From positions 14,068 to 78,067 of the forward strand of contig JABJNO010000002.1 in the NCBI GenBank assembly GCA_018664825.1: DNA of 64,000 nt. Direction: 5' to 3'. The notes under the pieces are model-generated. The model did no database searches, was not told where the DNA came from, and was given only the letters and a program-made list of their open reading frames with translations. This DNA is from Candidatus Parcubacteria bacterium (lineage in GTDB: Bacteria; Patescibacteriota; Patescibacteriia; UBA1558; GWA2-36-10). Shown piece by piece: positions 10,678 to 54,739 of this stretch (its first letter is position 1; each line of letters opens with the position of its first letter). A program made the translations under genes and the position numbers.

Positions 10678-11433
10678 TTATTCTTTATTTTTACCCATTC
10701 CTTCAAAGGCTCGTAAGATTTCTAGAGGTAAAGCAAATATTACTGTGTTTGATTGATCAGAAGATAAGTCATTGACTGACTGCAAAGTACGTAAATGCAA
10801 AGCACCTCTACTACCCGCCAATGTCTTGGCAGCTTTGGCCATATTTTCGGCAGCCATTACTTCACCCTGCGCCTTGATAATCACAGCTCTTTTTTCACGC
10901 TCTGCTTCTGCTTGTTTGGCAATTGTACGTTGCATATCTTTTGGAAGCTCAATATGTTTCAAATCAACTGAAACAACTTTGATTCCCCATGGATCAGTAG
11001 CAACATCAACAATTGTCTGAATACGTTGAGAAATTTGATCACGCTTGGTCAATAATTCATCCAAGTCTACTTCACCAACTACATCTCTCATGGTAGTTTG
11101 AGCCAATTGAGACACAGCATAATAAAAATGTTCTACCTCTAAAATAGCCCTATCAACAGACACTACTTTATAATAAAGCACTGCGTTGACATTGACTGAC
11201 ACATTATCTTTGGTGATTGCATCTTGATCAGGCACATCTACTGCCTTGACCCTGATGTCTACCTTGGTCATTGATTGAAAAATTGGAAAAATCAATCGCC
11301 AACCTGGTTCAACTGTTCTTTTGTATTTACCCAATTGAAATTTTAATCCTCTTTCATATTGATTGACCTGTCTAATAGAGATCAACAATACAAAAAGTAT
11401 AAAACCGATTACGATTACAAAAAATACTCCCAT
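10678..11433 (-). CDS. SPFH/band-7 (stomatin/prohibitin-like) membrane protein
   Basis: N-terminal TM segment, then an SPFH core (QYERGLKFQLGKY...VDIRV) and a C-terminal coiled-coil AEAEREKRA region. Confidence 0.75.
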   Translation of the reverse strand: MGVFFVIVIGFILFVLLISIRQVNQYERGLKFQLGKYKRTVEPGWRLIFPIFQSMTKVDIRVKAVDVPDQDAITKDNVSVNVNAVLYYKVVSVDRAILEVEHFYYAVSQLAQTTMRDVVGEVDLDELLTKRDQISQRIQTIVDVATDPWGIKVVSVDLKHIELPKDMQRTIAKQAEAEREKRAVIIKAQGEVMAAENMAKAAKTLAGSRGALHLRTLQSVNDLSSDQSNTVIFALPLEILRAFEGMGKNKE

Positions 11434-11442: not shown

Positions 11443-12813
11443 TTAATTATTTAATATATCCAAAATCTCTTTTTGGTGATTTTTGAGCTCAGCTTCTGCG
11501 TTGGCCTCAACGGTAATACGTAACAATGGCTCAGTATTTGAAGCTCGAACATTGAACCACCAATCCTCAAACTCTACGGTGATGCCGTCCATCTCATCCA
11601 ATATATTGGCTCCATAATTTTGTCTAATCTTTTCCAGACTAGCTTCTATATCTGCTACCTCTATATTTATTTCGTCACCTCTGACATATAGGCGGTATTC
11701 TTTGATAATCTCTGAAAGCGGACGACCATCTTCGGTCATGGTTTGTAATACCAATATCAGTGCTATAAAAGCATTGTCGGCATAATAATTGTCTCTAAAG
11801 GCAAAATGAGCTGACACTTCACCACTCATGATTCCGCCTTGTTCGCGCATATGTCTAGCCAAATTACGATAACCAACTTCACTACGGATTGGTTGACCGC
11901 CCCATTTGGCTACCAAATCTTTGACCGCATGAGAACATACTACGTTGTAGGCTATGCCCATGCCAGGAAAACGCTCCAACATAGGTTTGGCGAGTAGCAA
12001 CAATATCATGTCACCGGTAATAAAATTGCCTTTTTCATCTACCAAAAACATCCTATCACCATCTACATCAAAAATAACTCCCAGGTTTGCTTTTTCTTTG
12101 AGTACTTTTTCTGTTAGTTTATCGGCGGCACCATCGACGAGTGGATTTGGTGGACGATTTGGAAAACTACCATCCAAGTCTTTGAATATATGCACAAGTT
12201 TTGGAGGCATTTGATAAAATAAGCCTGGGATCAAAAGTCCGTTCATGCCATTGCCGGTATCTACTACAACTTTAAAATCTTTGAGTTTTCTATAATCAAC
12301 AAAAGATAAAATATGCTTGATGTGTTCTTCAATAATTTCTTTTTTGTTAATTTTGCCTTTTGACTTTGGATCTTTGATTGGAAATTTTATTTTTTCCATT
12401 TCTTCCAAAAGCTCTTTGCCTCCAATAAAACGAATATTGTCTCTAGTCTCTGGATCAATATAAGTCATCTTGAAACCTCCGTATTCTGGTGGGTTGTGAG
12501 AGGCAGTAATCATCATCCCGCCGTCATATTTGTAATAACCATTGGCAAAATAAAAATCATTGATAGACATCAGGCCATAGTAATCTACCTCTACACCATA
12601 TTCCATAAATACGCTCATGATTGCTTCTTTGATGGGCAGCGAAGACTGTCTAATGTCTCTACCTATACAAATTTTCAAGTCCTTGATCGGTTTGTTCATT
12701 TGATGAGAAACAACCCTTAGAAATGTCTGAGCAATAAATTTGGCTGCCTTTTCATCCAAGTCTTTTGGATAAACCCCCCTAATATCGTATGATCGGAAAA
12801 TATCTCTGTTCAT
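11443..12813 (-). CDS. Phosphomannomutase/phosphoglucomutase
   Basis: Active-site TASHNPPEYGGFK, metal-binding DGDGDR-like FDVDGDR, 456 aa. Confidence 0.8.
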   Translation of the reverse strand: MNRDIFRSYDIRGVYPKDLDEKAAKFIAQTFLRVVSHQMNKPIKDLKICIGRDIRQSSLPIKEAIMSVFMEYGVEVDYYGLMSINDFYFANGYYKYDGGMMITASHNPPEYGGFKMTYIDPETRDNIRFIGGKELLEEMEKIKFPIKDPKSKGKINKKEIIEEHIKHILSFVDYRKLKDFKVVVDTGNGMNGLLIPGLFYQMPPKLVHIFKDLDGSFPNRPPNPLVDGAADKLTEKVLKEKANLGVIFDVDGDRMFLVDEKGNFITGDMILLLLAKPMLERFPGMGIAYNVVCSHAVKDLVAKWGGQPIRSEVGYRNLARHMREQGGIMSGEVSAHFAFRDNYYADNAFIALILVLQTMTEDGRPLSEIIKEYRLYVRGDEINIEVADIEASLEKIRQNYGANILDEMDGITVEFEDWWFNVRASNTEPLLRITVEANAEAELKNHQKEILDILNN

Positions 12814-18035: not shown

Positions 18036-18500
18036 GTGAAACAAAAGATGAAGATGAAGATCCAAGATGGCGTTGTCTCGTTTGACAGCAGTGATACTCG
18101 AGATGAATTTCTCGGTTTCCTGCGCAAGCTGGCTAGTGATGATCCTCTGATCAGACAAGCAATAATCCCCATCATCGAGCACGAAGGTATCATCCCTGAT
18201 GCTGATATGAGTTTTACGGAACTAGTCCGTAATCTCGGCACCAACATCCACAAAGTTCCTGAAAGAATATTTGCCCTCTGGAATAAGATGCACGGTCAGA
18301 CATCTGACCCTACTAGTAAACATGTGATGAACACTCGTCAAGCCGCTGATTATACCAAACGCGACCCCTCTACCATGGCCCGCCTAGCTCACACAGGCAT
18401 CATCCCCGCCACCAAAATCAAAGGTCGCTGGCAATTTACTCGCCGTTCTCTCAACACCTTCCTAAGCAAACATGGCTATCTAACCTCAGCTCGAGGCTAA
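18036..18500 (+). CDS. Excisionase-family helix-turn-helix DNA-binding protein (GTG start), in a GC-elevated segment
   Basis: The C-terminal 45 aa (RQAADYTKRDPSTMARLAHTGIIPATKIKGRWQFTRRSLNTFL) match the excisionase/MerR-like HTH pattern (..G.IP..KIGRRW.F....L..WL). GC is about 47% against about 33% in the surroundings. Confidence 0.55.
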   Translation: MKQKMKMKIQDGVVSFDSSDTRDEFLGFLRKLASDDPLIRQAIIPIIEHEGIIPDADMSFTELVRNLGTNIHKVPERIFALWNKMHGQTSDPTSKHVMNTRQAADYTKRDPSTMARLAHTGIIPATKIKGRWQFTRRSLNTFLSKHGYLTSARG

Positions 18501-18547: not shown

Positions 18548-20578
18548 TTATTGTTGAGATGGTCTAATACTTGGATCTACTGGATCCACCGGATCTATAT
18601 TGTCTAAGATATCTTTTAAGTCTGACCAATCATCTATACATTTTTTATCCAAACATAACTGACCAGTATTTATTCCTTGTTCTGTAAAAGTTACAGCATT
18701 GCTTCCGTGCCAAAAATTTAAGTTTCCAGATCTATTATCTTGATAAATCCCCCAATGAGTATTGTCTCCTGATTGCAGATCAATTTCTGCATTTTCTGTT
18801 TCAGAATATATATCCAATGTTCTTTCTGGATATGCTTTATTAATACCAATCTTTCCACTAGAGTGAGCTGTAAACAATGGTTTACTTGGTGCTCCAGGAG
18901 CATCGCTATCAGCCACTACTCTAAAAGCAGAAACAGGATCATCGTTGTTTGCGTCTATAGCTATTCCTACATCCAAAAATGAACTAATCATCAAACCGCC
19001 CCAACCACCACTGATTGGTCCAATTTTTGATTGATTACCTTGTCCAATTAATAGTTCTCCACCGTTGTCTACTAGTAAATCACCATCAAAGTAGCCTGCA
19101 TAAGAATTTTCCCCATTTGCCTTGGCATAAACTGCTAATGAATCATCGCCATTTGATTTAAACACACCAGCCTTACCACCAAGCACCTCTGTCTGGGCCA
19201 TAATAGCCGCACTATAAGGTCTACCTGTATCTGTTACTCCTAAGGCCGCTATTCCTGTTATTGGATTTCCTTCTATGGCAGATAAATTACCAATCATTAC
19301 ATCACCATCAAACCAACCAGCCCAAGCTCCACCCGTTGCATTAGCAATCAAGGCTTTACTATTTTCACCACTAGCAGAAAGAGCCGCTGCTGATGAACTA
19401 GCCGCGCCTACAAAGGAACTAAAGTTATTTCTATTTGGCTCTATTGTTCCTAATGTTATATGTTTTGCAAATAAGTCTTCTGTGAAATTGGCATCACTAC
19501 GGAAATACACAGCCTCAGCACTTGATTTTATATTGTCTACTTCTAGGTCTCCATTTGTTATTTTTACTGGCCCATCAAAAAATCCAGCCGTACTACTAGA
19601 GATAGCATACAAGGCTGTACCGCCCACACCATTAGCTTGAAAAAATCCAGCCTTGGCATCATTACCATTGGCGCCAGCACTAAGTGCTATACCACCTGGG
19701 TTTTCATCAAGGACTGTCAATCTACCCGGAAGAGCTGGGCCCATGTGCAGGTCCTCGGTTATAACTACACTACCATCGAACTTACCAGCTAGCTCTCCGG
19801 CAAAAGCCTGACCATAAACACCAATGCCGCCTGGATAATTGGCTACACCAAGCACACCAGTATGCCCAGATCCAAATAAACCTGCTCCACCTGTCTCACT
19901 TGTTGACCAACCACGGACAGCGTTGCCATATGCATGTACATTTAAACCTGTATCTCCTTCATAATCTATCTCAACTTGACCATCAAACTTACCAGCATAA
20001 GAATTATTACCATCCGCATGACCATAAATTGCATTTGAATCCTCAGCATTAGCATAGGCCATTATAGCATCTTGACCAAAATCTAGACCTACTGCGCTAA
20101 CGCGTAAAGCTCCTTCTTGAGCTGAATCATGAAAACTACCTATGGTGGCTCCATTTTCTACACTAAGAAAATTTTCCACTCCCCAGCTTCCGTATAAAAA
20201 ACTTTTTTCACTTGCTGAATTTGAAAATGAATAACCACCCAAGTCCAAATCGACCGTCATCGGATTGTTCACATAAGAACCAGGCAATGTATCTATACCC
20301 CCATCATCAATAGAAATTGAGTTGATTTGATTTTCTAAAGTGTTTATTTTCTTTTCTAAATCAGAGACATCCTTCTGAAGAACGCCAGTAGTATCAAGTG
20401 CTTCTACAGTATTGAGCTCCAAAGTACGAGCTATCCCAGCATTGTAGCCCTGATAATAACTGATTCTTTCTTTGTCTTTTGAACCAAAAAAATCTACCGC
20501 CAAACTTTGTTGTGGTAGAGACATGGTCACAAAAATAGTTAGAACTAAAAATGAATTAAATAATTTTGTGCCTTTCAT
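18548..20578 (-). CDS. Large secreted glycine-rich repeat protein (putative surface or fibre-like protein)
   Basis: N-terminal signal peptide, a coiled-coil segment (LEKKINTLENQINSI), five or more repeats of the form aGxFDGxVxI (YAGKFDGQVEI, LAGKFDGSVVI, TAGFFDGPVKI, WAGWFDGDVMI, YAGYFDGDLLV), and a C-terminal PVDPVDP tail. Confidence 0.6.
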   Translation of the reverse strand: MKGTKLFNSFLVLTIFVTMSLPQQSLAVDFFGSKDKERISYYQGYNAGIARTLELNTVEALDTTGVLQKDVSDLEKKINTLENQINSISIDDGGIDTLPGSYVNNPMTVDLDLGGYSFSNSASEKSFLYGSWGVENFLSVENGATIGSFHDSAQEGALRVSAVGLDFGQDAIMAYANAEDSNAIYGHADGNNSYAGKFDGQVEIDYEGDTGLNVHAYGNAVRGWSTSETGGAGLFGSGHTGVLGVANYPGGIGVYGQAFAGELAGKFDGSVVITEDLHMGPALPGRLTVLDENPGGIALSAGANGNDAKAGFFQANGVGGTALYAISSSTAGFFDGPVKITNGDLEVDNIKSSAEAVYFRSDANFTEDLFAKHITLGTIEPNRNNFSSFVGAASSSAAALSASGENSKALIANATGGAWAGWFDGDVMIGNLSAIEGNPITGIAALGVTDTGRPYSAAIMAQTEVLGGKAGVFKSNGDDSLAVYAKANGENSYAGYFDGDLLVDNGGELLIGQGNQSKIGPISGGWGGLMISSFLDVGIAIDANNDDPVSAFRVVADSDAPGAPSKPLFTAHSSGKIGINKAYPERTLDIYSETENAEIDLQSGDNTHWGIYQDNRSGNLNFWHGSNAVTFTEQGINTGQLCLDKKCIDDWSDLKDILDNIDPVDPVDPSIRPSQQ

Positions 20579-27968: not shown

Positions 27969-28715
27969 ATGTCCGACAAGAAAATTATTGCCGTTTTGCC
28001 AGCCTACAACGCTGCTAAAACACTAAAGCTAACTTTGGATGATATACCAGAGGGTAGTGTAGACGAAATCATACTCGTAGACGATTGTTCACAGGACAAC
28101 ACAGTAGAAGTGGCCAAACAGCTAGGCATAAAAGTTATTGTTCACGAAAAAAATAAGGGCTATGGTGGCAACCAAAAAACTTGTTATCGCGAAGCTCTCA
28201 AAAGTGGAGCTGATATTGCCATCATGATTCACCCTGACCATCAATACAATCCAAAGTTGGTTCCTCAGATGCTAAAACCACTGATAGACGAAGAGTGTGA
28301 TGCTGTATTTGGATCTAGGATGATCTACAAAAAAGATGCCTTAGCTGGCGGTATGCCAAAATGGAAATTTGCTGCCAATATTTTCCTAACCAGTTTAGAA
28401 AATATTTTATTGGGCACAAAACTAGCAGAATACCACTCAGGATTTAGAGCTTATTCAAAAAAAGCCTTGGAGACTCTACCACTAGAAGAAAACTCAGATA
28501 ATTTTGTTTTTGATACAGAAATCATTGTCCAACTTGTGGCCAATGATTTTAAAATAAAAGAAATCCCTATCAATACAAAATATTTTAAAGATGCCTCAAA
28601 CGTTGGTCTAAAACAAGGCATGAAATATGGTACTGATATATTGCGTACAATGGGCAAATATAAATTGCACCAATGGGGAATCAAAAAAAGATCTCAATTT
28701 AAAAAAGTCACTTAA
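27969..28715 (+). CDS. GT2 glycosyltransferase, polyprenyl-phosphate sugar synthase-like (DPM1/Ppm1-like)
   Basis: VLPAYNAAKTL...DEIILVDDCSQD (DxD-type GT-A); 248 aa with no TM segment. Confidence 0.7.
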   Translation: MSDKKIIAVLPAYNAAKTLKLTLDDIPEGSVDEIILVDDCSQDNTVEVAKQLGIKVIVHEKNKGYGGNQKTCYREALKSGADIAIMIHPDHQYNPKLVPQMLKPLIDEECDAVFGSRMIYKKDALAGGMPKWKFAANIFLTSLENILLGTKLAEYHSGFRAYSKKALETLPLEENSDNFVFDTEIIVQLVANDFKIKEIPINTKYFKDASNVGLKQGMKYGTDILRTMGKYKLHQWGIKKRSQFKKVT

Positions 28716-30248
28716 ATGAAAATAGATTTTGATAAAAATTATAAAATAATATTATTTTTGATAATATTATTGGGTTTTGGCTTACGTCTTATAAATATAA
28801 ATAAGGATGTTTTGTGGCAAGACGAAGCAGAAACAACCATCAACACTATCCAGGTAGTTGAAGATGGCTACCCTCACGGATATTTTGAAGGTAAGCCAAT
28901 ATTTGAAACAAAGGCTTATATAGAAATAGACGATCCTGTATACCAATACACTCCTACAAATTATTATGGCTCAAAATATGAAAACAACAAAGGTTGGCTA
29001 ACTTATTATTTTTTAGCTCCTTTTATAAAAATATTTGGTATTTCTGAGACAGCCACCCGACTACCTTTTTTTATCTTTTATATATTTACTACAATATCTA
29101 TATACCTGACATCTCAATTGCTTTTTAAAAACAAAAAGATATCGTTACTAGCATCTTTGTTATTCTCCATTGATTACTTTGCAATGATATACGGCAAACA
29201 AGCCAGGTATTATAGTATATTCATGTTCCTTCCTCTTGCCTCTTTCTATTTTAATTATCTATATATACATAGCAAAAAAACTATACACTTGTTTTGGTTA
29301 ACTACTTTTCTGATATTGACCTTTCACACCCATATTGTTTCCTTTATTTTTCTGATTTTATTTTATCTATACTATGACTTCATAAAAATAAAGAAAATAA
29401 AAATAAATAAAGCTTTTATTTTGAATGCTTTATATCTTTTGATTGCAACCGTACCTTGGTTGTTCTTGGTAAAATTTTGGGTGAACTTTCTTACCCATAG
29501 CGACATTTCAAACCCAAACGATGGTGTAAAAATTTTGTGGATTATAGGAGTTGTTATCTTTTGGCTGGCTATCAAATTTTATAAATACCTTACTAAGGGT
29601 AAATACAATATAGAGATAACAAAAATAATTCCCGAGCCACTGATTTATTTCTTTTGGCTTTATATTATTTTCTTACCGATTATCATCCCCTCCGAATCAT
29701 TTGCTATCCGTATATTTATACCTTTATTGCCATTTTTTTCTATTGTCTTTTCCCGTCTTGTATTTAAAATATTGAAAAACAAATCCAACCTAAAATATTT
29801 GACCACAATTGTCATATTTATACTTTCGTACATCTTTATTTTTACAATGCTCCGCCAATATACTCATTATGGAAAAACCAACTGGATAAAAAATGTTTTT
29901 GAATATGCTCAAAGTACAAACTTTGATCAAAAAAATGATATTATTTTATCTACTTGGCAAGACTTATCTCTAGCTTTTTATAGTGACTATGAAATATATA
30001 GGACAGAAACCCTAAGGGCTGATTTTGTAAACAACTATCCCAATAGGATATTATTTATCCTCCCTTATAAACACCTAGAAGAGCTCTGCCCAGAAGAAAA
30101 TAAAAAATTTGTCAGAGATCATAATTTTTGGATGCATTCCAGAGATTATTCTAAATTTATTCCTAGATTAGAAAAATGCTCCCAAAAAACCCTAGGAGCT
30201 GAAGTACTTATGTTTGATTGTCCGGCTTTAGAGAAAATTAGCAATTAA
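28716..30248 (+). CDS. GT-C fold glycosyltransferase, PMT/ArnT (GT39/GT83)-like integral membrane protein
   Basis: The first-loop motif LWQDEAETT (a DE motif), an RLPFFIFYIF-type helix and more than ten TM segments. Translationally coupled to the upstream GT2 (the stop is adjacent to the ATG). Confidence 0.6.
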   Translation: MKIDFDKNYKIILFLIILLGFGLRLININKDVLWQDEAETTINTIQVVEDGYPHGYFEGKPIFETKAYIEIDDPVYQYTPTNYYGSKYENNKGWLTYYFLAPFIKIFGISETATRLPFFIFYIFTTISIYLTSQLLFKNKKISLLASLLFSIDYFAMIYGKQARYYSIFMFLPLASFYFNYLYIHSKKTIHLFWLTTFLILTFHTHIVSFIFLILFYLYYDFIKIKKIKINKAFILNALYLLIATVPWLFLVKFWVNFLTHSDISNPNDGVKILWIIGVVIFWLAIKFYKYLTKGKYNIEITKIIPEPLIYFFWLYIIFLPIIIPSESFAIRIFIPLLPFFSIVFSRLVFKILKNKSNLKYLTTIVIFILSYIFIFTMLRQYTHYGKTNWIKNVFEYAQSTNFDQKNDIILSTWQDLSLAFYSDYEIYRTETLRADFVNNYPNRILFILPYKHLEELCPEENKKFVRDHNFWMHSRDYSKFIPRLEKCSQKTLGAEVLMFDCPALEKISN

Positions 30249-31592
30249 AACAGATAGCATATAAAAAGATAAAAATAAAGCTACTGAAAATACAATTACA
30301 AGTCTCAATGCCCTGTGTTTAATAAAAGATAAAAAATAATTACTAAAAAATATTATCATCAAAGACATAACCGGAAAAAGATAGCGTCCCTGTATACCTA
30401 GGCCTGAATGACCTTTTTTTAAATAACCAAGATAATTATAAAAAAATACCACAAATATGTATGCCAAGGCTATTATAAAAGCCCAGAGCATTTTTTTATT
30501 TTTGGTTTTAAAATTAAATAACAAGGACATAAATAAAACACATATGAAAAATTTGGCTAACAAAAAATTTTCACGAAACGATGTGTGCTGCATATGCCCA
30601 GATAGATTAACCGTCCTATCAATTGTAAAATTAATCCAATTATAAGAATATTTTAAAATAGCAGACAGCCCTGCCTGAGGTTTTTCTAAGGTATTTGTAA
30701 AAATTTTATTTCTCTGAAATATATAATCCTCCTCCCAACATATTTGTTGGGTAAAAACAAGTTGGCAGTTAGGTAATATGTTTTTATAGTTTACAAAATT
30801 TTTAAAAAATATAAAAAAGTTACTCAAAAATAAAATAATTAATAAAGAAAGTAAAACCGTAAATTTAAGTTTATTTTTATAAAATAAGCTTTTTAGACTT
30901 TGCCAAACAAATTGTTGGTTTTTAATAATTTGCCAAATTAAAACAATGCCTATTATTCCTGCCAATGGTAAAAAAGTAAACTTGGTTAGTACTCCTAATA
31001 GTATAAAAATTAAAATAATAAATAAATACTCTATTTTCTTTTTATCAATAAATCTAAATAAATAATAAAGACTAATAATGCTAACTAAGTTAACTAAATT
31101 ATCATAAGATACCGCAGCTGAAAGAAATAAAAACATCGGTATAATAACATGCAATAAAAAAGCAACGGTTACTAAGCCTTTGTCTTTTAGAATTAGTAGC
31201 GCTAATTTGTAAAAGAAATAAAGATATAAAAGTGAAAATAATATGTTAATAAAACGTAAGAATAGTAAATCTGAAATGTTAAAAAAATTTAGATGCAATA
31301 ACCTACCCAACGACCAATGATAAAAAAAGGAAGATTTACTTCGAATACTATAATAAGCCCTCTTCATTGGTTCTGGGGCTATATCGGGATTTGTTGCTTG
31401 AAGTAATTCATCATCTTCCAAAAAGAAATGTGGAGAATTCTTAAAATTATTTATCTGATTAAAATGAAAAACCTCATCTGGTGGTGCACCAAATTGTACA
31501 TTATTTGCCAAATACAAAGTAATCAAAACGAAAAAAAACATTAATAAGAATATTGTATATTTTGCCCATTTATTTTTTATCTTTTCTAGCAT
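30228..31592 (-). CDS. Polytopic membrane protein, probable second GT-C glycosyltransferase
   Basis: Multi-TM protein with the early-loop motif FGAPPDEVFHF. Its 3' end overlaps the convergent gene by 21 bp. Confidence 0.4.
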   Translation of the reverse strand: MLEKIKNKWAKYTIFLLMFFFVLITLYLANNVQFGAPPDEVFHFNQINNFKNSPHFFLEDDELLQATNPDIAPEPMKRAYYSIRSKSSFFYHWSLGRLLHLNFFNISDLLFLRFINILFSLLYLYFFYKLALLILKDKGLVTVAFLLHVIIPMFLFLSAAVSYDNLVNLVSIISLYYLFRFIDKKKIEYLFIILIFILLGVLTKFTFLPLAGIIGIVLIWQIIKNQQFVWQSLKSLFYKNKLKFTVLLSLLIILFLSNFFIFFKNFVNYKNILPNCQLVFTQQICWEEDYIFQRNKIFTNTLEKPQAGLSAILKYSYNWINFTIDRTVNLSGHMQHTSFRENFLLAKFFICVLFMSLLFNFKTKNKKMLWAFIIALAYIFVVFFYNYLGYLKKGHSGLGIQGRYLFPVMSLMIIFFSNYFLSFIKHRALRLVIVFSVALFLSFYMLSVLIANFL

Positions 31593-31723
31593 TCAAATAT
31601 AATAAAAATATCTACTAATATTATATAATAAATGATGCAAATATACTAATATGGTATTGTCTTTTTTACTATATTTATGCTTTAATACACTATATAATAT
31701 ACTGAATAAACTAAACTATTTAG

Positions 31724-32698
31724 ATGGACATGTTGCATAACAATAAAAAACTCATAGTTATAATACCAGCCTATAATGAGGCCGCTCATATAGCTATGGT
31801 TATCAAAGATGTGCCCAGAAGCTTGGATAAAATATCCGAAGTATTAGTTTTGGTCTCTGATGATGGCTCTACAGATGATACGGTCAAGATAGCCAAAGAA
31901 ACTAAGGCAGATTACATTATCTCCAATAAACATAACATGGGACTTGGTAAAAATTTCCAAATCGCTATAGAAAAAGCATTGTCCCTGGGTGCTGATATTA
32001 TTGTTAATATAGATGGTGATGGTCAATTTGATGCCCAAGATATAAAAAAACTGATACTACCAATAGTAAATAATGAAGCTGATATGGTCACCGGTTCTAG
32101 ATTTAGTAATAAGAAAGATAGTAAAAATGTACCCCTCATAAAAAGATTCGGCAATTATGCTTTTACTAAATTGATAAACCTCATTACTAAACAAAAATTC
32201 ACAGATACCCAATGCGGCTTTAGAGCTTACTCAAAAAGAGCAGCCTTAAAATTAAATTTATTTGGCCGCTTTACCTATACTCAAGAAACTTTTATTGACC
32301 TTGCTGAAAAAGAAATAATAATAAAAGAAGTACCTATATCCGTAAAATATTTTGACGACCGAAAATCACATATTTCCGGTAATTTGATAAGTTATGGTTT
32401 TAAGAGCTTAGCCATAGTTGCCAATACCCTACGAGATACCCAGCCAATAATGTTCTTTGGCTTTCCTGGAACCACTCTACTGAGCCTAGGGTTTGTTGGT
32501 GGTTTATACTCTTTTATATACTGGCTAATAAACCATCAAACTACACCTATTAAAACTCTATTTATAATAGCTGTCTTCTTTATGACCTTTGGCTTGATGC
32601 TAATCATATTTGGCTTACTAGCTGATATGATAAAAAGAGTCAAAAAAAATCAGGAAGAGATCCTGTACAAATTAAAGAAAAAAGAATTTAAAAAATAA
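31724..32698 (+). CDS. GT2 glycosyltransferase with C-terminal TM helices (GtrB/polyprenyl-P glucose synthase-like)
   Basis: IPAYNEAAHI...VSDDGSTDDT DxD GT-A domain plus two C-terminal TM helices. Confidence 0.7.
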   Translation: MDMLHNNKKLIVIIPAYNEAAHIAMVIKDVPRSLDKISEVLVLVSDDGSTDDTVKIAKETKADYIISNKHNMGLGKNFQIAIEKALSLGADIIVNIDGDGQFDAQDIKKLILPIVNNEADMVTGSRFSNKKDSKNVPLIKRFGNYAFTKLINLITKQKFTDTQCGFRAYSKRAALKLNLFGRFTYTQETFIDLAEKEIIIKEVPISVKYFDDRKSHISGNLISYGFKSLAIVANTLRDTQPIMFFGFPGTTLLSLGFVGGLYSFIYWLINHQTTPIKTLFIIAVFFMTFGLMLIIFGLLADMIKRVKKNQEEILYKLKKKEFKK

Positions 32699-32704
32699 TT
32701 TTAT

Positions 32705-33781
32705 CTAAACAAACCTTTTTATATTATCTACTATGATATCTGAAGGACCAACATCAGCAACGATTGTTGGTTTTTTATATTTATGATAATTATAAACAAA
32801 ATTTTTGATAACACTTTTGTCATAACCCGACAAAACTACATTAGCTTTTAGCCCTTCTTGTCTTTCGGTTTTTTTACGAAGTAATAAACACGGCTTACCT
32901 AAGAAAAAAGCCTCCTCTTGATTACTACCACCATCACTAATCAAAAACTCTGAATTGATAACTAACTCAATAAAAGAAAAATAATCATATCGTGGCCTAA
33001 GTTCTATATTTTTGTTGTTATCCAATCTATGAAATAAACCATGTTTTAATAATTGTTTTTTAGTTGGAGGGTGCATAATAAATAAAATTTTTATATCCTT
33101 GGCTATATCCTCAATTATTGCAATTACCTCTTTTAATTTACTTAACCTAAAAATATTTTCATACCTGTGTATTGAGGCTACGGCGAATTTTTCTCCAGGA
33201 ATATCTAAATTATTATTATTTTTGTCTTTAGCTATAATCAAAGAATCATACAAAGTATTAAGATGAGTGTTTATTTTTTTACCTTTATATCTTTTTAAAA
33301 TACCCAGGGCCCAATCACCAGGACAAAAATAATAATCTGTCATAAAAAAAACTAATACCCTGATTATTTCTTCTGGAAATGGATGAAAATAATTATATGA
33401 TCTCAAGCCTGATTCAACGTGACCGCTCTTTAGGCCAGCCACTTTTGCCAATAAAGTCCCCAATAAAGTACTGAAAGTATCACCATGATTTAAAACAATT
33501 CCATCTTTATCATTTTTGAAAATGTTCTTTTTGTTACTTAAAACTTTAAAAATAATTTTAAACCCCCAAGTAACCATCTGAAATATATTTGTGATTTCTG
33601 GTCCTTTGTATAAAACAACATCAGGTTCTTTTATACCAAAATTTGCCCTCAAGTCATCTACGGTCTCCTTGTGCTGCCCTGTAAATATATAATTATAATA
33701 CATCCCTCTTTTTTGGAGAGTAGACATTATGGGTGCCATTTTTATCAACTGAGCCTTTGTACCTACTATGATATGAATCAT
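32705..33781 (-). CDS. UDP-N-acetylglucosamine 2-epimerase (non-hydrolysing) family
   Basis: MIHIIVGTKAQLIKMAPI...TGQH..., typical of Epimerase_2. Confidence 0.65.
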   Translation of the reverse strand: MIHIIVGTKAQLIKMAPIMSTLQKRGMYYNYIFTGQHKETVDDLRANFGIKEPDVVLYKGPEITNIFQMVTWGFKIIFKVLSNKKNIFKNDKDGIVLNHGDTFSTLLGTLLAKVAGLKSGHVESGLRSYNYFHPFPEEIIRVLVFFMTDYYFCPGDWALGILKRYKGKKINTHLNTLYDSLIIAKDKNNNNLDIPGEKFAVASIHRYENIFRLSKLKEVIAIIEDIAKDIKILFIMHPPTKKQLLKHGLFHRLDNNKNIELRPRYDYFSFIELVINSEFLISDGGSNQEEAFFLGKPCLLLRKKTERQEGLKANVVLSGYDKSVIKNFVYNYHKYKKPTIVADVGPSDIIVDNIKRFV

Positions 33782-33786
33782 GTGTA

Positions 33787-34974
33787 TTATTTAGATTTTT
33801 TATATAAATAAACAAAATTTGCACTCTCTTCCTTCTTTAGAAGGTCTAGTTTATTATCATAATTAATATTTATACTAGAAACATAATCTATTTTTGCTAT
33901 CAATTCTTTTGCTTGAAAATTTTTGGGATTTATAAAAAAATTATCCTTATTATCCCTAGGTTCAATTACTCTATCAATAAAATTATACACCTTACTGGAA
34001 TAGTCTATGGCTACAAAAGGTATTTTATTCATAAAAGAAAATATCAAAGAATGAAACCTCATACAAAGAGCAACGTCTGCATATTTTATTACTCCATATA
34101 TCTGTTGTAATGAATAAACATCTGAAAATAAAAAAATATTTTTCTTAACTTTAATTAAATCTATTACTTCTTTGTGAATTTTATTATCTACTTTATTATA
34201 AAAGGGTAGAAATAATATTTGATAATCCTTGTTTTGTAAATATTCTAAAGTTTGAGATATTTTTGTTATAAAAGAAAGATGCTTTTGCTTGTCTTTTTTT
34301 GTCCGAAAATTTAATCTTCTTACAATACTTGCTGGTAACAAAGCATAATGACTAAAATAATCACGCAAGCAAACAACTATTATTTTTTTATCTAAATTTA
34401 AATTATTTTTTATTAGAAGATCTTTTGCATCATACTCTGACAATAAATCATCAAGACTCGTAGCTGGGTCTGCTGTTACTTTAATATTAGCCTTGTCTAC
34501 TCCAATTTTTTCTAACAACTCTTTTGACTGTTTGTCTCTTACTGTAATCCCAACAGATGTGTTCATAATCATCTTTACTAGCACCCTACTAATTTTATAT
34601 TGCAATGGCCCTACTCCAATAGCGTAAAAAAATATTTTTTTCCTTAATAATTTAGCAATAATAATTCTAGAAAAAAAGAAGGGTATGTTGAATATACTTG
34701 TTTGATCTTGAATTATACCACCACCACCACAAACAAAAATTTGTGAATTAAGGATAGCCTTTATAGAACTAACAATACTACTATTGTATATATTAAAATT
34801 TTTATTTTTAAAATTTTCTAATATTTTTTTAGTATTATTTATATTAAATGAAATAATACTAATATGCTCAACTTTCGGGCTCACCTCTTTGATAACAGCA
34901 CAAAAAATAGCTTCATCGCCCATGTTCTCAGAGCCAATAAAAGAAAAAATGCAAACGTTCTTTTTGATAAACAT
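33787..34974 (-). CDS. Polysaccharide pyruvyl transferase family protein (CsaB/WcaK-like)
   Basis: N-terminal GSENMGDEAI and CGGGGIIQD motifs, characteristic of PS_pyruv_trans. Confidence 0.5.
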   Translation of the reverse strand: MFIKKNVCIFSFIGSENMGDEAIFCAVIKEVSPKVEHISIISFNINNTKKILENFKNKNFNIYNSSIVSSIKAILNSQIFVCGGGGIIQDQTSIFNIPFFFSRIIIAKLLRKKIFFYAIGVGPLQYKISRVLVKMIMNTSVGITVRDKQSKELLEKIGVDKANIKVTADPATSLDDLLSEYDAKDLLIKNNLNLDKKIIVVCLRDYFSHYALLPASIVRRLNFRTKKDKQKHLSFITKISQTLEYLQNKDYQILFLPFYNKVDNKIHKEVIDLIKVKKNIFLFSDVYSLQQIYGVIKYADVALCMRFHSLIFSFMNKIPFVAIDYSSKVYNFIDRVIEPRDNKDNFFINPKNFQAKELIAKIDYVSSININYDNKLDLLKKEESANFVYLYKKSK

Positions 34975-35963: not shown

Positions 35964-35970
35964 CATATAA

Positions 35971-36004
35971 CCCGCCTTGAAAGGAATCAAGGCGGGTTTT
36001 TTAT
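35971..36004 (+). terminator. Intrinsic terminator after the NYN gene
   Basis: Perfect 10-bp stem cccgccttga/tcaaggcggg, 6-nt loop, tttttt. Confidence 0.75.
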
Positions 36005-37343: not shown

Positions 37344-37688
37344 TCAATGAGAGGCTGGAGGGTGTGTCATGAGGTAATAAAAATTACCAAAACCAATTGC
37401 AAATATGCAGGCTCCTCCAAGAAGCATGATGCTCTTAACTTCTTTTGGGACTTTATCCAAATCAATATTGATAATACCAACCTTGGCACAGATGACAAAA
37501 AGTCCATAAAAAGTTGCAGCAGCAGAAGCAAATATAACAAACAATACCAAGAATGCTCTAAAGAGAGCTAGAAATGATTCTTCAAAATAAAATAACTGGA
37601 TAAAAACATTAGCAGCAGTCAGGCATAACAATAATAAAATGTGCATAATGACAAACTTTTTGAAGTCTCTTTTTTCCGGGTTACTCAT
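37344..37688 (-). CDS. Small integral membrane protein (114 aa, about 3 TM), hypothetical
   Basis: Hydrophobic ORF with a strong SD (AAGGAGG) upstream. It lies between queH and queA on the same strand. Confidence 0.4.
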   Translation of the reverse strand: MSNPEKRDFKKFVIMHILLLLCLTAANVFIQLFYFEESFLALFRAFLVLFVIFASAAATFYGLFVICAKVGIINIDLDKVPKEVKSIMLLGGACIFAIGFGNFYYLMTHPPASH

Positions 37689-49002: not shown

Positions 49003-49977
49003 ATGGATTCTTTTTACAAAAAGATTTATAAAAAATCTTTCTTAACTGTTAAAAACAACTACAACTTATTGTTTTTTGGCTTATTTGCCTCTATCCTTGG
49101 TTTTTATGAAGTCCGAATTTTACTAAACCTAAACTCTGTCGGTCCTGATTTCTTGAGCTCAAACATAGTCAACTGGGTAAAGATTTTTGCTGTGTTTAGC
49201 ATTAGTGGTATTTCTAGTTTTTCTGTCAGCGGAATAATAACAATGCTTGGCATGTTTATTTTTTCCGCCATCATGATTGTTTTGGCCATATCTTCTCAGG
49301 GAGCATTGATAAACGCTTCTATTGAAAAGGCCAATGGTAAAACTTCAAAATTTAACAAGCACCTACAAATAGGTCTACAAAAATTTTGGCCCTTACTAGG
49401 CCTCAATGTAGTCAATGCTCTGATCGGCTACTTTTTTATTATTTCAGTGGTTGATCCTTTGATTGGATTTATAGCCCTGAGCTCTACTACTTGGGTTATG
49501 TTCCTTATTATGAGTCTAGTCGTCTTCTTCGTACTTATCCCTCTAGTGATTATTTTATCTTTTGTCACTCGTTATGGAGCGGCTTATGTAATACTCAAAG
49601 ACAACAAATTCAAAGACGCTTTCTACAATGGTTGGAATTTGTTCAAAATAAATTGGCTAGTCACTGTTGAAAATGCAATCTTCTTATTATTTGTTACTAT
49701 ATTTTATTTTATAATATTATTGGCTTTACTTGTATTTATATTTACTCCATTCTTGATTTTGGGATTATTCTTAGCTTTCAATATGTATATTTTCTGGTTT
49801 ATCTTTACTATTGGAATATTTTTGGGCGTTATCATATTCTTGGTTGGCACCTCAAAGTTTGGTGCCTACTACAATTTGATATGGGCCAATGTATTTTTGG
49901 AGCTCACAGCCAAAGGCAAAACCTACAGCAAAGTACATCGAGTAGCGCATAAACATATGCCTAAACTTACAAAATAA
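49003..49977 (+). CDS. Polytopic membrane protein, hypothetical
   Basis: More than six predicted TM segments. No motif recognised. Confidence 0.4.
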   Translation: MDSFYKKIYKKSFLTVKNNYNLLFFGLFASILGFYEVRILLNLNSVGPDFLSSNIVNWVKIFAVFSISGISSFSVSGIITMLGMFIFSAIMIVLAISSQGALINASIEKANGKTSKFNKHLQIGLQKFWPLLGLNVVNALIGYFFIISVVDPLIGFIALSSTTWVMFLIMSLVVFFVLIPLVIILSFVTRYGAAYVILKDNKFKDAFYNGWNLFKINWLVTVENAIFLLFVTIFYFIILLALLVFIFTPFLILGLFLAFNMYIFWFIFTIGIFLGVIIFLVGTSKFGAYYNLIWANVFLELTAKGKTYSKVHRVAHKHMPKLTK

Positions 49978-51892: not shown

Positions 51893-54739
51893 CTATTGGC
51901 CATTCACCTTGTTCTTGGCTTCGGCTAATCGTTTTTTTGTATCCTCTATCACCTGCGGTGGTGCATTGCTGACAAATTTTTCATTGGCTAGCTTGGCTTC
52001 TGTATTTTTAATATATTTTTCCAGATCTTGTTTTTCTTTGTCTGACAATTCTTTGGTCAAATCTATAAATACCTTACTGCTGTTTATGGCTATTGGTTTT
52101 ACATTTACTTTTTTGTCCGTCAGATTGACCCTAGCCATCTTGGCGGCAAGTTCTAGATATTTTTTATCCAAAATTTTACTGTCCAAATTACAATCGGGAA
52201 ATTCAGTTGGCGGTATCTTATTTTCAGCTTTAAGATTTCTTAAACTTACTACCAGTTCTTTGAGTTCAGTAAAATTTGTAATTACATCCTTATCCACTTT
52301 ACCAGCTTTGGGCCACTCTTTGACCATCATTAATTCTTTTTCACCAAATTGCTCCCAAATCACTTCTGTCACAAATGGAATAAAAGGATGACACAAAACA
52401 AGGAGTCTTTCCAAAATATAAAGTAATATCTCTTCTTTGTCTTTTTCTATTTTAGAAATTTCTAAATACCAATCTGCCAAATCATCCCAAGTAAAATGAT
52501 AAAGCTTGGTACCTGCTTCTGAAAAATGAAATTTTTCTAAGTCCTCGCTTATTTCTTTTATAGTTTCGTTAAATTCAGACAAAATCCACTTATCAGCCAG
52601 AGTTTTTGCCCTTGGTTGTTTTTTGACTCTTTTGACGTTGTCTGCACTGGTAAAAATAAATCGAGAAATATTCCAAAGTTTATTTACAAAATTTCTATAA
52701 CCCGCAATCTTGTCTTCATAAAGTCGCATATCTGCTCCTGGTGCAGATCCAATGATCAAAGACAGACGAAGTGCGTCGGTACCAAATTTTTCACTCATTT
52801 TTATCGGATCTATACCATTACCCAAAGACTTGGACATTTTTTTGCCATCCTTATCTCGGATCATACCATGTAGATAAACAGTATCAAATGGCTTTGTTTC
52901 CAAAACATACTCTGTCATCATTATCATCCTAGCTACCCAAAAAAATAAAATATCATAGCCAGTCTCCATTACAGAGCTTGGATGAAATAAATCTAGATCT
53001 GACTTTTTACTATAAACAAAATCATAAGCCCATAAGTCCGTATTATCCGTAATATCCTTGTCTGGATAATATTTTTTGAATGTTTTTTTGAAATCATCTT
53101 TATCCTTATACTCTTCGTGACCCTTTTGTTTGGGATCTACATCTTTAAACTTAATTTTTTGAATATTGGTAATTTTTATATAACCAAAATTTTTCTTTGT
53201 CTGAGTATTTTCCACAACAATAGTTTCACCAATACTATATCCCTTATCTGCCAATCTATATGTTTTGGTTTTTTCTCCACTCTCTACTATCTTGACCAAA
53301 TCTTTATCAAGACCAATTTTGTTTTGTATTGGCCACCCCAAAGTAGAAAAGGTCCAAAGTGAAGATGAAAACCAAGTATCAAGAGTGTCTTTGTCTTGAG
53401 TTAGTTTTTTATTACCAGCTTTTTTGTTTGCTTCAGTTTCATTTGGAGCTACTATCACCTCTCCATCCTCGGTATACCAAACAGGAATCCGATGTCCCCA
53501 CCAAATCTGACGAGAAATACACCAATCATGAAGATTTTCCATCCAATGATAATATGTTTTATCAAATCGCTTTGGTAATATTTCTATATCCCCACCTTTG
53601 ACGGCATTGATAGCCAATTCTTTGAGGCTCTTGCCTCGGCTTGGAATTTTTTTGTTTACCCTGACAAACCATTGTTCAGAAGTAAGTGGCTCAATAGGAG
53701 TATCACAACGATAACAAATAGAAAGATTGTTTTTTATACTATCTATTTTTTCTATTTGACCTGCTTTTTCCAAATCAGCTACAAATTCTCTTCTGGCTTG
53801 CAAAACATTTTTACCTTTGTACTTGCCACCGGTTTTCATGATATGTCCAGACTCATCAATCAGTTTGATAATTTCCAAATCATGCCTTTGAGCAAGCTCA
53901 TAATCAGTTGTACTGTGAGCAGGGGTTACTCCCACTACTCCACTACCAAATCTTTTATCGATTTCTTTATCGGCAATGACTTTTACTTTTATCTTGTGTC
54001 CAGCCAGATCTATATCCAGCTCTTGCCCAACATATTTTTTGTATCTTCGATCACTCGGGTGGACAGCTACACCAGTATCGGCTAGTTTTGTTTCTGGTCT
54101 AGTCGTTGCCACTACAAATGGACCATATTTTATATAATATAGTTTAGCGTCTTGTTCTTTGTGTTCTACTTCATCGTCAGCTAGGGTAGAGGCGCAGCGC
54201 GGACACCAATTGACTATCCGATAATCCCTCTCTATCAAACCGTCGTCATACATTTTGACAAAAGCTTGATTGACCGCCTTTGATAAGCCGTCGTCAAAAG
54301 TATATCTTTCACGAGACCAATCACAACTAGAGCCCATCTTGCGAGTTTGTTTGCGGATGGTACCTTGTGAGCTAGCTACGTATTCTTTGACTCTGCCCAA
54401 AAACTTTTCTCGACCAAGTTTTTTTCTGTCTGTACCCTCGATAGCCAAAATCTTTTCTACCTTTGTCTGGGTAGCAATAGCCGCATGGTCAGTACCTGGC
54501 ACCCAAAGAGCCTTATCGCCCTTGAGGCGGTGGAAACGGACCATTAGGTCTTCGTAGGCCAAAGCAGCGGCATGCCCCAGATGCAAAATACCAGTAGCAT
54601 TTGGTGGTGGCATAGATATGACAAAAGGCTTCCCCTTGGCTTTGAGCTTGTCAGGATCAAAAAGACCAGACTCTTCCCAGGTCTTATAAATATCATCTTC
54701 ATATTTGGTTGGCTCGTAAGCTTTGGCTAATTCTTGCAT
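51893..54739 (-). CDS. valS: Valyl-tRNA synthetase
   Basis: HIGH region PPPNATGILHLGHA, KMSKS, and a C-terminal coiled coil. The start is set at the internal ATG (MQELAKAYEP), because the ORF-track extension runs through the leader terminator. Confidence 0.9.
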   Translation of the reverse strand: MQELAKAYEPTKYEDDIYKTWEESGLFDPDKLKAKGKPFVISMPPPNATGILHLGHAAALAYEDLMVRFHRLKGDKALWVPGTDHAAIATQTKVEKILAIEGTDRKKLGREKFLGRVKEYVASSQGTIRKQTRKMGSSCDWSRERYTFDDGLSKAVNQAFVKMYDDGLIERDYRIVNWCPRCASTLADDEVEHKEQDAKLYYIKYGPFVVATTRPETKLADTGVAVHPSDRRYKKYVGQELDIDLAGHKIKVKVIADKEIDKRFGSGVVGVTPAHSTTDYELAQRHDLEIIKLIDESGHIMKTGGKYKGKNVLQARREFVADLEKAGQIEKIDSIKNNLSICYRCDTPIEPLTSEQWFVRVNKKIPSRGKSLKELAINAVKGGDIEILPKRFDKTYYHWMENLHDWCISRQIWWGHRIPVWYTEDGEVIVAPNETEANKKAGNKKLTQDKDTLDTWFSSSLWTFSTLGWPIQNKIGLDKDLVKIVESGEKTKTYRLADKGYSIGETIVVENTQTKKNFGYIKITNIQKIKFKDVDPKQKGHEEYKDKDDFKKTFKKYYPDKDITDNTDLWAYDFVYSKKSDLDLFHPSSVMETGYDILFFWVARMIMMTEYVLETKPFDTVYLHGMIRDKDGKKMSKSLGNGIDPIKMSEKFGTDALRLSLIIGSAPGADMRLYEDKIAGYRNFVNKLWNISRFIFTSADNVKRVKKQPRAKTLADKWILSEFNETIKEISEDLEKFHFSEAGTKLYHFTWDDLADWYLEISKIEKDKEEILLYILERLLVLCHPFIPFVTEVIWEQFGEKELMMVKEWPKAGKVDKDVITNFTELKELVVSLRNLKAENKIPPTEFPDCNLDSKILDKKYLELAAKMARVNLTDKKVNVKPIAINSSKVFIDLTKELSDKEKQDLEKYIKNTEAKLANEKFVSNAPPQVIEDTKKRLAEAKNKVNGQ

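Follow-up and report, generated by a model that had tools for sequence, protein, structure and literature searches.

We analysed a gene cluster predicted to serve cell-envelope glycosylation, at positions 27969-34974 of a 64,000-nt stretch of DNA from a marine Candidatus Parcubacteria bacterium (assembly GCA_018664825.1, contig JABJNO010000002.1); this whole stretch is referred to below as the window. The cluster comprises six open reading frames (ORFs), whose coordinates and enzyme classes, as proposed in an initial annotation, were borne out by the ORF list and by matches to Pfam and NCBIfam. GT2a (27969-28715, +) encodes a soluble family 2 glycosyltransferase (GT2) of 248 aa with a GT-A fold, and GT-C1 (28716-30248, +) encodes a polytopic protein of 510 aa with a GT-C fold. 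We refer to this pair as module A, of which GT2a is the predicted donor-making half and GT-C1 the predicted transferase half. Module B consists of GT-C2 (30228-31592, −), which encodes a membrane-only GT-C-fold protein of the DUF2142 type (454 aa), and GT2b (31724-32698, +), which encodes a membrane-anchored GT2 of 324 aa. Module C consists of genes for an epimerase of the WecB/MnaA type (32705-33781, −; 358 aa) and for a CsaB-like ketal-pyruvyl transferase (33787-34974, −; 395 aa), a soluble enzyme dependent on phosphoenolpyruvate (PEP). Modules B and C make up a variable cassette.

The stop codon of GT2a (TAA, 28713-28715) directly abuts the ATG of GT-C1 at 28716; the two genes had been annotated as translationally coupled. 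The 3′ ends of the convergent genes GT-C1 and GT-C2 share 21 bp (30228-30248), again as annotated. GT-C2 and GT2b indeed form a divergent pair, separated by an AT-rich spacer of 131 bp (31593-31723) that is presumed to be a shared promoter region. A promoter-consensus scan of the region returned 59 matches, not above the 48.8 ± 7.4 of shuffled sequence, and demonstrated no promoter. The other intergenic gaps in the cluster measure 5-6 bp. Housekeeping genes flank the cluster on both sides, UvrD/PcrA and YchF upstream and a gene for an NYN-domain protein, QueA, QueH, RuvB and GyrA downstream. An identical or near-identical cluster was found in five other independent assemblies, including the metagenome-assembled genome (MAG) GCA_018670855.1 (Candidatus Parcubacteria bacterium) and a 113.8-kb JGI contig.

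Comparison with related genomes separated the cluster into two parts. According to a scan of one genome per species, 16 loci carried relatives of GT-C1 (27-53% identity), and these loci were labelled Patescibacteria, Candidate Phyla Radiation (CPR) or unclassified MAGs. A GT2a orthologue (270-437 bits) lay adjacent to the GT-C1 relative or within 1.3 kb of it in 13 of the 16, mostly directly adjacent. These are distant Patescibacteria loci, and the arrangement is no chance juxtaposition. GT2a orthologues also adjoin GT-C1 in loci L022 and L030, giving an overall range of 270-517 bits, and GT2a is much more conserved than GT-C1. Tandem paralogues of GT-C1 occur in L006, L009, L015, L016 and the contig of relative P0004. 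A profile search with GT-C1 among 1.84 billion representatives retrieved 195 clusters (50% identity) at E ≤ 1e-30, about 30 of them full-length and very strong; a further 6,888 clusters at E ≤ 1e-10 represent the wider PMT_2-like superfamily. All GT-C1 homologues with a taxonomic name were assigned to Patescibacteria or an unclassified MAG. A glycosylation system of this kind had been described as unexpected in a minimal genome; this was not supported, as the GT2a–GT-C1 pair is conserved in Patescibacteria and CPR bacteria have already been reported to be rich in glycosyltransferases (PMC5220378).

The same comparison showed the other four genes to vary with the locus. In L006, L007 and L008, which are from related Parcubacteria, the backbone YchF–GT2a–GT-C1–NYN–QueA is present without them. 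In L022, whose GT-C1 is 56% identical to that of the window, GT-C2 and an intact GT2b occupy the same place (8981-11338), and in the JGI contig of P0004 GT-C2 is accompanied by a GT2 fragment of only 81 aa; neither locus has the epimerase or the CsaB-like gene. In both, GT-C2 is again convergent with GT-C1 and overlaps it. The L022 protein is the closest homologue of GT-C2, and the sole close one, at 40% identity with position and orientation kept. In L030, the closest relative of the cluster (92% identity in GT2a, 75% in GT-C1), the slot (2393-6993) holds co-directional genes for a DUF2142 GT-C, a GT2, a family 4 glycosyltransferase (GT4) and a pyruvyl transferase. The L030 GT2 and pyruvyl transferase are only 27% and 25% identical to those of the window, and its GT-C scored 47 bits on the GT-C2 family profile. 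The epimerase gene is missing from the slot in L006-L008, L022 and L030, and L030 has the GT4 gene where the window has the epimerase. These non-orthologous contents show that related enzyme classes have been exchanged at a fixed chromosomal position, with epimerase and GT4 as the exception.

The base composition follows the same division. The GC content is 0.39-0.41 in GT2a, 0.43 in the NYN gene and 0.39-0.43 in the flanking genes for soluble proteins, as against 0.22-0.30 in the cassette (GT-C2, 0.22-0.26; epimerase, 0.28-0.30; CsaB-like, 0.24-0.27). Because the epimerase and the CsaB-like enzyme are soluble, their low GC content does not stem from the codon bias of membrane proteins. Thus the six genes, which had been annotated as one cluster, are adjacent to one another but do not form one coherent unit: the cluster is a composite of a conserved GT2a–GT-C1 pair and a strain-variable, low-GC cassette between GT-C1 and the NYN/QueA genes. 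Like cwps and O-antigen loci, the slot is hypervariable. A strong intrinsic-terminator-like hairpin (35969-35998, +; 12-bp stem, 7 of its pairs GC, and then a T-run) is located directly past the NYN gene and delimits the variable region on its downstream side; it was the only convincing terminator in the promoter/terminator scan.

Variation was also apparent within the population. A haplotype present in two other metagenome assemblies (L003 and L004) differed from the window by two substitutions in 7.4 kb, of which 34820 A>C converts codon L52 of the CsaB-like gene (TTA) to a TGA stop and 33300 A>T replaces I161 of the epimerase by Asn. These data suggest that the epimerase/CsaB pair either can be dispensed with or varies within the population. 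They would also fit a model in which there is no single system at all, six independent envelope genes having gathered in a recombination-prone slot, with cooperation limited to GT2a and GT-C1. The modules are indeed separable, module A occurring alone in L006-L008, with module B in L022 and with other content in L030; the genes run in mixed directions, some pairs being convergent and others divergent; and the nonsense allele stands in a cluster that is otherwise identical except for I161N. However, a DUF2142 GT-C, a membrane GT2 and a pyruvyl transferase recur together in the L030 slot, even with GT4 in place of the epimerase, and unrelated lineages have similar gene sets (L028/L039 and L046, described below). 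Moreover, orthologues of GT2b and the epimerase are adjacent in L043, and the window's genes are packed as tightly as the gaps and the overlap given above indicate. On balance, we consider a merely fortuitous assembly highly improbable.

To assign the two GT2 enzymes, we compared them with Pfam, NCBIfam and solved structures. Both matched PF00535, GT2a at 93.7 bits and GT2b at 84.4 bits. Among NCBIfam models, GT2a scored 92.7 bits on AglJ (TIGR04182), 70.7 on the dolichyl-phosphate (Dol-P)-hexose transferase, 66 on PpgS and 23.9 on ArnC; the corresponding scores of GT2b were 142.2 (over model positions 3-290 of 293), 74, 104 and 57 bits. The models of processive synthases gave at most 26 bits (NodC) and 35 bits (PgaC) on either enzyme. 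As all subfamily scores lie below the NCBIfam equivalog cutoffs, which is 325 bits for AglJ, they assign the enzyme class and not the sugar. The best match of GT2a in the PDB was the dolichyl-phosphate-mannose synthase (DPMS) of P. furiosus (5mlz; E 1.6e-8), and residues 4-307 of GT2b, including the transmembrane region, aligned with the solved ArnC 9hwj (E 8.5e-12). With AglJ, Dol-P-hexose transferase, PpgS, ArnC (on GT2b) and DPMS far above NodC and PgaC, GT2a and GT2b group with the polyprenyl-phosphate sugar synthases, as annotated, and not with the processive synthases.

The two GT2s differ in architecture and in their motifs. A hydropathy scan found no hydrophobic segment in GT2a and two in GT2b (∼251-269 and 273-306), corresponding to two C-terminal transmembrane helices. 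GT2b has the architecture of GtrB, AglJ and ArnC and is predicted to act as the polyprenyl-phosphate sugar synthase of the cassette, and GT2a as that of module A. All 15 GT2a orthologues (L006-L022 and L030) carry the motif HPD(H/Y)QY (window positions 28224-28241, residues 86-91), where GT2b, DPMS, GtrB and ArnC have DxDxQ. This motif is a conserved variation on the metal-binding DXD motif and marks GT2a as a distinct subfamily.

The membrane proteins GT-C1 and GT-C2 are very divergent in sequence. The sole Pfam match of GT-C1 was PMT_2 (29.4 bits; cutoff 26.1), and GT-C2 matched DUF2142 (42.2 bits; cutoff 30.1) and PMT_2 (30.3 bits). The PMT family PF02366 did not match GT-C1 and reached 22.1 bits in GT-C2, under its cutoff of 22.7. 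Profiles of the two families, run against all PDB sequences, matched no solved protein. We modelled both with AlphaFold2 from alignments of 24 (GT-C1) and 30 (GT-C2) homologues, obtaining a pLDDT of 88.4 and a pTM of 0.88 for GT-C1 and a pLDDT of 85.9 and a pTM of 0.90 for GT-C2. When the models were searched against the PDB with Foldseek, the first 35 matches of GT-C1 were all GT-C enzymes, among them STT3/PglB (E 3e-7), ArnT (TM-scores 0.52/0.50), ALG9, DPY19, AftA, Emb and, only at E ∼0.07-0.3, protein mannosyltransferases (PMTs). The top 42 matches of GT-C2 were likewise all GT-C enzymes, including PglB (E 2.7e-4), ALG12 (TM-scores 0.51/0.48) and Pmt4 (0.52/0.48), and no PMT was the top match. 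Over both proteins, the GT-C enzymes matched included EmbA/B/C, Pmt1/2/4 and PimE, with TM-scores of ∼0.5, and no significant match fell outside the GT-C enzymes.

The alignments revealed an invariant DE pair just past the first transmembrane helix in both proteins. In GT-C1, the invariant residues at this place are W34, D36, E37, E39 and T40 (W34-x-D36-E37-x-E39-T40), followed by E89, N91, K92, G93, W94, R164-Y165-Y166 and C488/C502. In GT-C2, they are P38-D39-E40, with R113, Y163-D164 and K204 further on. GT-C1 has a C-terminal α/β domain (∼aa 384-510) that carries both invariant cysteines, which are consistent with an extracytoplasmic location of the domain; in the model of GT-C2, the C-terminus is a transmembrane helix. 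Some GT-C1 relatives (P0028, P0151, P0153 and P0156; 760-810 aa) have an extra Cys-rich C-terminal extracellular extension of ∼270 aa without a Pfam match. The possibility that these long relatives are Rosetta-stone fusions to a GT2 was ruled out, as the extensions are Cys-rich and not GT2 domains.

The GT-C signature was thus recovered in both membrane proteins, and with it a fold-level assignment. Because neither family profile matched a PDB sequence, the GT39/GT83-like assignment in the initial annotation was dropped: according to the models, GT-C1 and GT-C2 are best described as GT-C-fold enzymes of uncharacterised families, and membership of GT39, GT83 or GT66 is demonstrable for neither. 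More specifically, a GT39 PMT identity is disfavoured by the missing or subthreshold PF02366 match and by the profile searches, and the DE motif of the first loop (D36-E37 and D39-E40) does not discriminate GT39, being common to other GT-C families. For GT83, the similarity to ArnT is at the level of the fold only (TM-score ∼0.5), without a sequence match; CPR bacteria have been reported to lack lipid A synthesis (PMC5220378). The top STT3/PglB matches prompted us to consider a GT66 oligosaccharyltransferase, which was rejected because the WWD/WWDxG motif occurs in neither protein and the TM-scores equal those of ArnT and ALG enzymes; the STT3/PglB matches mirror the common GT-C core. A literature search returned nothing specific on GT39 or GT-C enzymes in Patescibacteria.

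These results bear directly on the proposal that the locus resembles the mycobacterial Ppm1/Pmt pair, that is, that GT2a is a Ppm1/DPM1-like polyprenyl-phosphate-mannose synthase and that GT-C1, GT-C2 or both are Pmt-like enzymes glycosylating Ser/Thr residues of secreted proteins during export. The logic is the same, namely a GT2 polyprenyl-phosphate-sugar synthase combined with a GT-C enzyme whose first loop carries DE, as in PMTs. The weak Pfam matches to PMT_2 and PMT, the position of DPMS as the best solved homologue of GT2a, and the secreted repeat proteins encoded in the window are in line with this proposal. In addition, GtrB together with a GT-C has been reported to O-glycosylate streptococcal membrane proteins (PMC11092751). 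However, GT-C1 lacks PF02366 and GT-C2 falls below its cutoff, neither profile finds a solved PMT by sequence, and in the fold search PMTs rank well below oligosaccharyltransferases, ArnT and ALG enzymes for GT-C1 and are not on top for GT-C2. There is no significant GT39 sequence relationship, nothing points to mannose as the sugar or to proteins as acceptors, and the neighbouring epimerase and CsaB-like genes point to a glycopolymer context. Protein O-mannosylation is accordingly very unlikely, and the parallel with Ppm1/Pmt is reduced to one of logic.

Module C consists of two enzymes with well-characterised relatives. The epimerase matched Epimerase_2 (PF02350; 170 bits) and the wecB model TIGR00236 (194.1 bits; cutoff 210.15), with only 13.6 bits on NeuC, and matched 24 solved 2-epimerases in the PDB, the best being 4neq (E 3.5e-37). 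By these sequence matches, it is a non-hydrolysing UDP-N-acetylglucosamine (GlcNAc) 2-epimerase of the WecB/MnaA type, not of the NeuC type, and the predicted supplier of UDP-N-acetylmannosamine (ManNAc). The window also encodes GlmS (62253-63983, −) and a phosphoglucosamine/phosphohexose mutase (11443-12813, −), which makes a supply of UDP-GlcNAc for the epimerase plausible. The pyruvyl transferase matched PS_pyruv_trans (PF04230; 144.6 bits), and CsaB (TIGR03609; 196.6 bits) was by far its best curated model, though under the equivalog cutoff of 213.1; WcaK scored only 26.6 bits. An alignment of eight sequences showed G14, N17, G19-D20-E21, G83-86, R146-D147, R204, R306, H308 and K328 to be invariant. 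In CsaB of P. alvei, the PEP-binding and loop residues R148, R207 and H308 have proved essential on mutagenesis, and K328 relevant (PMC10435577); R146, R204, H308 and K328 of the window's enzyme are near-identical to these in number, a correspondence by position only. The nearest homologues, at 44-47% identity, lie outside the window's lineage and are not from Firmicutes; they come from a MAG labelled Nanoarchaeota and from a bacterium that carries a gene for a lipid-A acyltransferase.

The combination of MnaA and CsaB is a known route to pyruvylated ManNAc, the ligand of S-layer homology (SLH) domains (PMC6030368, PMC11464976). The initial annotation had missed that an epimerase and CsaB together are the known signature of wall polymers with pyruvylated ManNAc. 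They raise the possibility of a classical pyruvylated secondary cell wall polymer (SCWP) with SLH anchoring. In such a scheme, the epimerase and the CsaB-like enzyme would serve a diphosphate-linked ManNAc-GlcNAc polymer, initiated by TagO/TagA and encoded elsewhere, pyruvyl-ManNAc would be the ligand of SLH-domain surface proteins, and both GT2/GT-C pairs would add side-chain sugars on the outside, as GtsA/B/C do in Bacillus anthracis. Modules B and C would then be linked through a common polymer and not through a common lipid intermediate. The best matches of the two enzymes, to CsaB and to the non-hydrolysing WecB/MnaA type, support this scheme, as do the conserved positions of the residues essential in P. 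alvei CsaB, the known route through MnaA and CsaB to the SLH ligand, and the decoration of the B. anthracis SCWP by a GT-A/GtrA/GT-C system (PMC8035078). SLH-annotated proteins have also been reported from some Patescibacteria (PMC9530719). With the MnaA/CsaB pyruvylation of ManNAc in P. alvei and B. anthracis, the locus shares an epimerase gene beside a CsaB-like gene and GT-A/GT-C pairs in the neighbourhood.

Several observations argue against the SCWP scheme. In the 64-kb window, to which our searches for such genes and for flippase genes extended, there is no gene for an SLH protein, TagA/WecG, TagO/WecA or a LytR-CpsA-Psr (LCP) protein. Both module C enzymes score under the equivalog cutoffs, and the nearest CsaB-like homologues, being non-Firmicutes, stand beside GT2, GT4 and GT-C genes. 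In other loci, too, CsaB-like genes sit with genes for a GtrB-like GT2, a GT4 and a GT-C; no TagA or TagO was seen among the annotated or scanned genes of those examined. We therefore regard an SLH-anchored SCWP as unlikely.

In view of these associations, the loci around CsaB-like genes are described individually. The L026 family, from the bacterium with the lipid-A acyltransferase gene, has divergent-adjacent epimerase and CsaB-like genes together with genes for a GT4, a Wzx-like protein and a YfhO-type GT-C. Loci L028 and L039, from the MAG labelled Nanoarchaeota (GCA_018829185.1; L028, 7998-16291), contain a GT2 (32% identity to GT2b), a GT4, CsaB, a PMT_2 GT-C, LPG_synthase_TM, further genes and a second PMT_2 GT-C. 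The archaeal label of this bin implies either inter-domain transfer or mis-binning. Locus L046 (3663-12334) contains a PMT_2 GT-C, a GT2b orthologue (41%), a GT4, a methyltransferase, a CsaB-like enzyme, LPG_synthase_TM, an ORF without a Pfam match and a DUF2142 GT-C, the last lying ∼4.5 kb from the GT2b orthologue within the one locus. The genes of L028 and L046 do not follow the same order, and a few of those in between are not shared. Locus L043 encodes a UDP-sugar dehydrogenase, orthologues of GT2b (50%) and of the epimerase (44%), a deacetylase, a FemAB-like protein, an acetyltransferase, a B12-radical SAM protein and a CsaB-like enzyme, and in L045 the CsaB-like gene is directly downstream of an epimerase orthologue. 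A GT-C2-type gene adjoins that of a membrane-type GT2 in L022 and L030. This recurrent co-location suggests a single lipid-linked glycan as the common substrate of the pyruvyl transferase, the membrane GT2 and the GT-C. It also suggests that the donor of GT2b may be UDP-ManNAc or a derivative.

Taken together, the data point to a composite cell-envelope glycan locus that operates in the manner of Gram-positive multi-component transmembrane glycosylation systems, and we consider this interpretation probable. It is the best fit to the data and lies close to the pathways for the lactococcal polysaccharide pellicle (PSP) and for the decoration of the B. anthracis SCWP; a Ppm1/Pmt pair fits less well. 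The pairs of a GT2 synthase and a GT-C enzyme support the lipid-carrier-dependent, extracytoplasmic logic that had been annotated. From the enzyme classes, we infer the following order of steps. In module A, the soluble GT2a would use a nucleotide sugar to charge polyprenyl phosphate at the cytoplasmic face of the membrane, a flippase presumably encoded elsewhere would translocate the polyprenyl-phosphate sugar, and GT-C1 would transfer the sugar to an envelope acceptor, using the first outer loop with its DE pair and the outer domain at its C-terminus. Candidate acceptors are wall glycopolymers, lipoglycans and surface proteins.

In the cassette, the epimerase would make UDP-ManNAc, and the membrane-anchored, AglJ/ArnC-like GT2b would start a polyprenyl-phosphate-linked sugar, plausibly ManNAc. 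The CsaB-like enzyme may then act on the product of GT2b, adding a 4,6-ketal pyruvate from PEP to the lipid-linked sugar on the cytoplasmic side, and the DUF2142-type GT-C2 would attach or polymerise the product outside. This sequence would parallel that of the lactococcal PSP, from WpsA through cytoplasmic tailoring and a flippase to WpsI/WpsJ.

A number of points weigh against this interpretation. No flippase (GtrA PF04138, Wzx or LPG_synthase_TM) was found among the window's ORFs of at least 120 aa or in a membrane ORF of 114 aa, and no small membrane partner of the GacJ/WpsB type adjoins GT2a or occurs in the cluster or the window. In known multi-component systems, the flippase is often encoded elsewhere (PMC8035078), and LPG_synthase_TM of L028 and L046 may be the missing one. 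GT2a has HPD in place of the canonical DxD, and every NCBIfam subfamily score is under its equivalog cutoff. The sole biochemically characterised CsaB uses a diphosphate-linked ManNAc-GlcNAc disaccharide and not a monophosphate-linked monosaccharide (PMC10435577). As L022 has module B without module C, a functional link between the two is not obligatory, and the co-location of their genes was seen in a handful of loci, without a statistical background model. Finally, the identity of the acceptor and of the sugar is not derivable from sequence. Two polytopic membrane ORFs of the window without a Pfam match, at 49003-49977 (+; 324 aa) and 37344-37688 (−; 114 aa), were not identifiable as flippases.

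The proposed composite locus can be placed beside several described systems. Multi-component systems consist of a soluble or membrane-linked GT-A synthase, a GtrA- or Wzx-type flippase and a divergent GT-C (PMC8035078). The locus shares with CsbB/GtcA/YfhO, GtlA/GtlB, GacI/J/K/L and CsdAB/CD/EF with CflA (PMC8035078) the genetic pairing of a GT-A GT2 with a polytopic GT-C, the presence of several pairs per genome and the high sequence divergence of the GT-C; GT2b is membrane-anchored like CsbB and GtrB, and GT2a is soluble like GacI and WpsA. By contrast with these systems, the window has no flippase or GacJ/WpsB-like gene, GT2a has HPD, the GT-C1 family is small, and the acceptors known from Firmicutes (lipoteichoic acid, wall teichoic acid and rhamnan) are not established in CPR bacteria. 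A haloarchaeal parallel is the AglJ-initiated assembly on dolichol phosphate: AglJ is the best full-length NCBIfam match of GT2b (142 bits), and the idea of tailoring a monophosphate-linked sugar before its transfer is common to both. It differs in that GT2b is far under the AglJ cutoff and that neither GT-C has the WWDxG motif of AglB/STT3.

The lactococcal PSP is a close parallel. In its synthesis, WpsA/WpsB generate GlcNAc-P-C55, which is elongated in the cytoplasm, translocated by the Wzx protein WpsG, polymerised by WpsH/WpsI (DUF2142) and attached to rhamnan by the GT-C WpsJ (PMC10821137, PMC12599335). The PSP genes lie in the hypervariable part of the cwps locus (PMC10821137, PMC12599335, PMC9746298). 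Beside a conserved part, both loci thus have a hypervariable cassette that combines a DUF2142 GT-C with a GtrB/GacI-like GT2 and with enzymes for tailoring in the cytoplasm, a likeness drawn from the descriptions of the Wps proteins and not from their sequences. In both, the glycan would be built on a monophosphate carrier and attached outside. The window differs in lacking a GT4 or other elongating glycosyltransferase, Wzx and rml genes, and in having an epimerase and a pyruvyl transferase for tailoring; a GT4 gene does form part of the corresponding cassettes in L030, L028 and L046. By these analogies, the closest precedents for the locus appear to be the systems that decorate Gram-positive wall polymers and not protein O-mannosylation, a point that the earlier annotation had not made.

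The composition of the CPR/Patescibacteria cell envelope is essentially unknown (PMC5220378), and this envelope matters because it mediates attachment to hosts. Each enzyme class found here, the logic of the system and the richness of CPR bacteria in glycosyltransferases were known already, and no known principle of bacterial glycosylation is altered. What is new is the conserved GT2a(HPDHQ)–GT-C1 module of Patescibacteria, the variable glycan cassette at a fixed slot, and the recurrent association of a CsaB-like enzyme with a GtrB-like GT2 and a GT-C in CPR and DPANN loci. The pairing of GT2a (HPDHQ) with GT-C1, a family found here only in Patescibacteria or unclassified MAGs, offers a tractable target in the search for a conserved surface modification. 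The hypervariable cassette at its fixed position resembles the cwps and O-antigen loci that set phage and host recognition in cultivated bacteria, and the cluster is a candidate source of pyruvylated ManNAc in bacteria other than Firmicutes and Cyanobacteria.

A bolder interpretation, which we hold to be doubtful, is that GT2b, the epimerase, the CsaB-like enzyme and GT-C2 constitute a self-contained, undescribed route. In this route, ManNAc from UDP-ManNAc would be placed on a polyprenyl monophosphate, ketal-pyruvylated there, flipped and transferred to the envelope by GT-C2, and the recurrent gene set would serve the display of pyruvylated glycans in CPR/DPANN organisms. If this were true, the set of a GtrB-like GT2, in some cases a GT4, a CsaB-like enzyme, LPG_synthase_TM and a GT-C would be a shared CPR/DPANN way to present pyruvylated surface glycans. 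These glycans could act as an anchoring or attachment epitope in an episymbiotic lifestyle, and the variable slot and the nonsense allele would mirror diversifying selection on the surface.

Three further genes of the window drew our attention. A secreted protein of 676 aa (18548-20578, −) has a signal peptide and Gly/Ala-rich repeats (AGKFDGxVxI) but no Pfam match; its gene adjoins that of a small HTH_17 protein (18036-18500), and it may belong to the surface or S-layer-like proteins. A second secreted protein, of 485 aa (59794-61251, +), has two repeats of ∼150 aa (weak fn3) with an Asp-rich linker between them and, C-terminal to these, a coiled-coil-like region; it is a candidate for a surface protein that might be glycosylated. 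Lastly, the valyl-tRNA synthetase encoded at 51893-54766 (−) has an ASCH domain (residues 487-569) inserted in its catalytic core.

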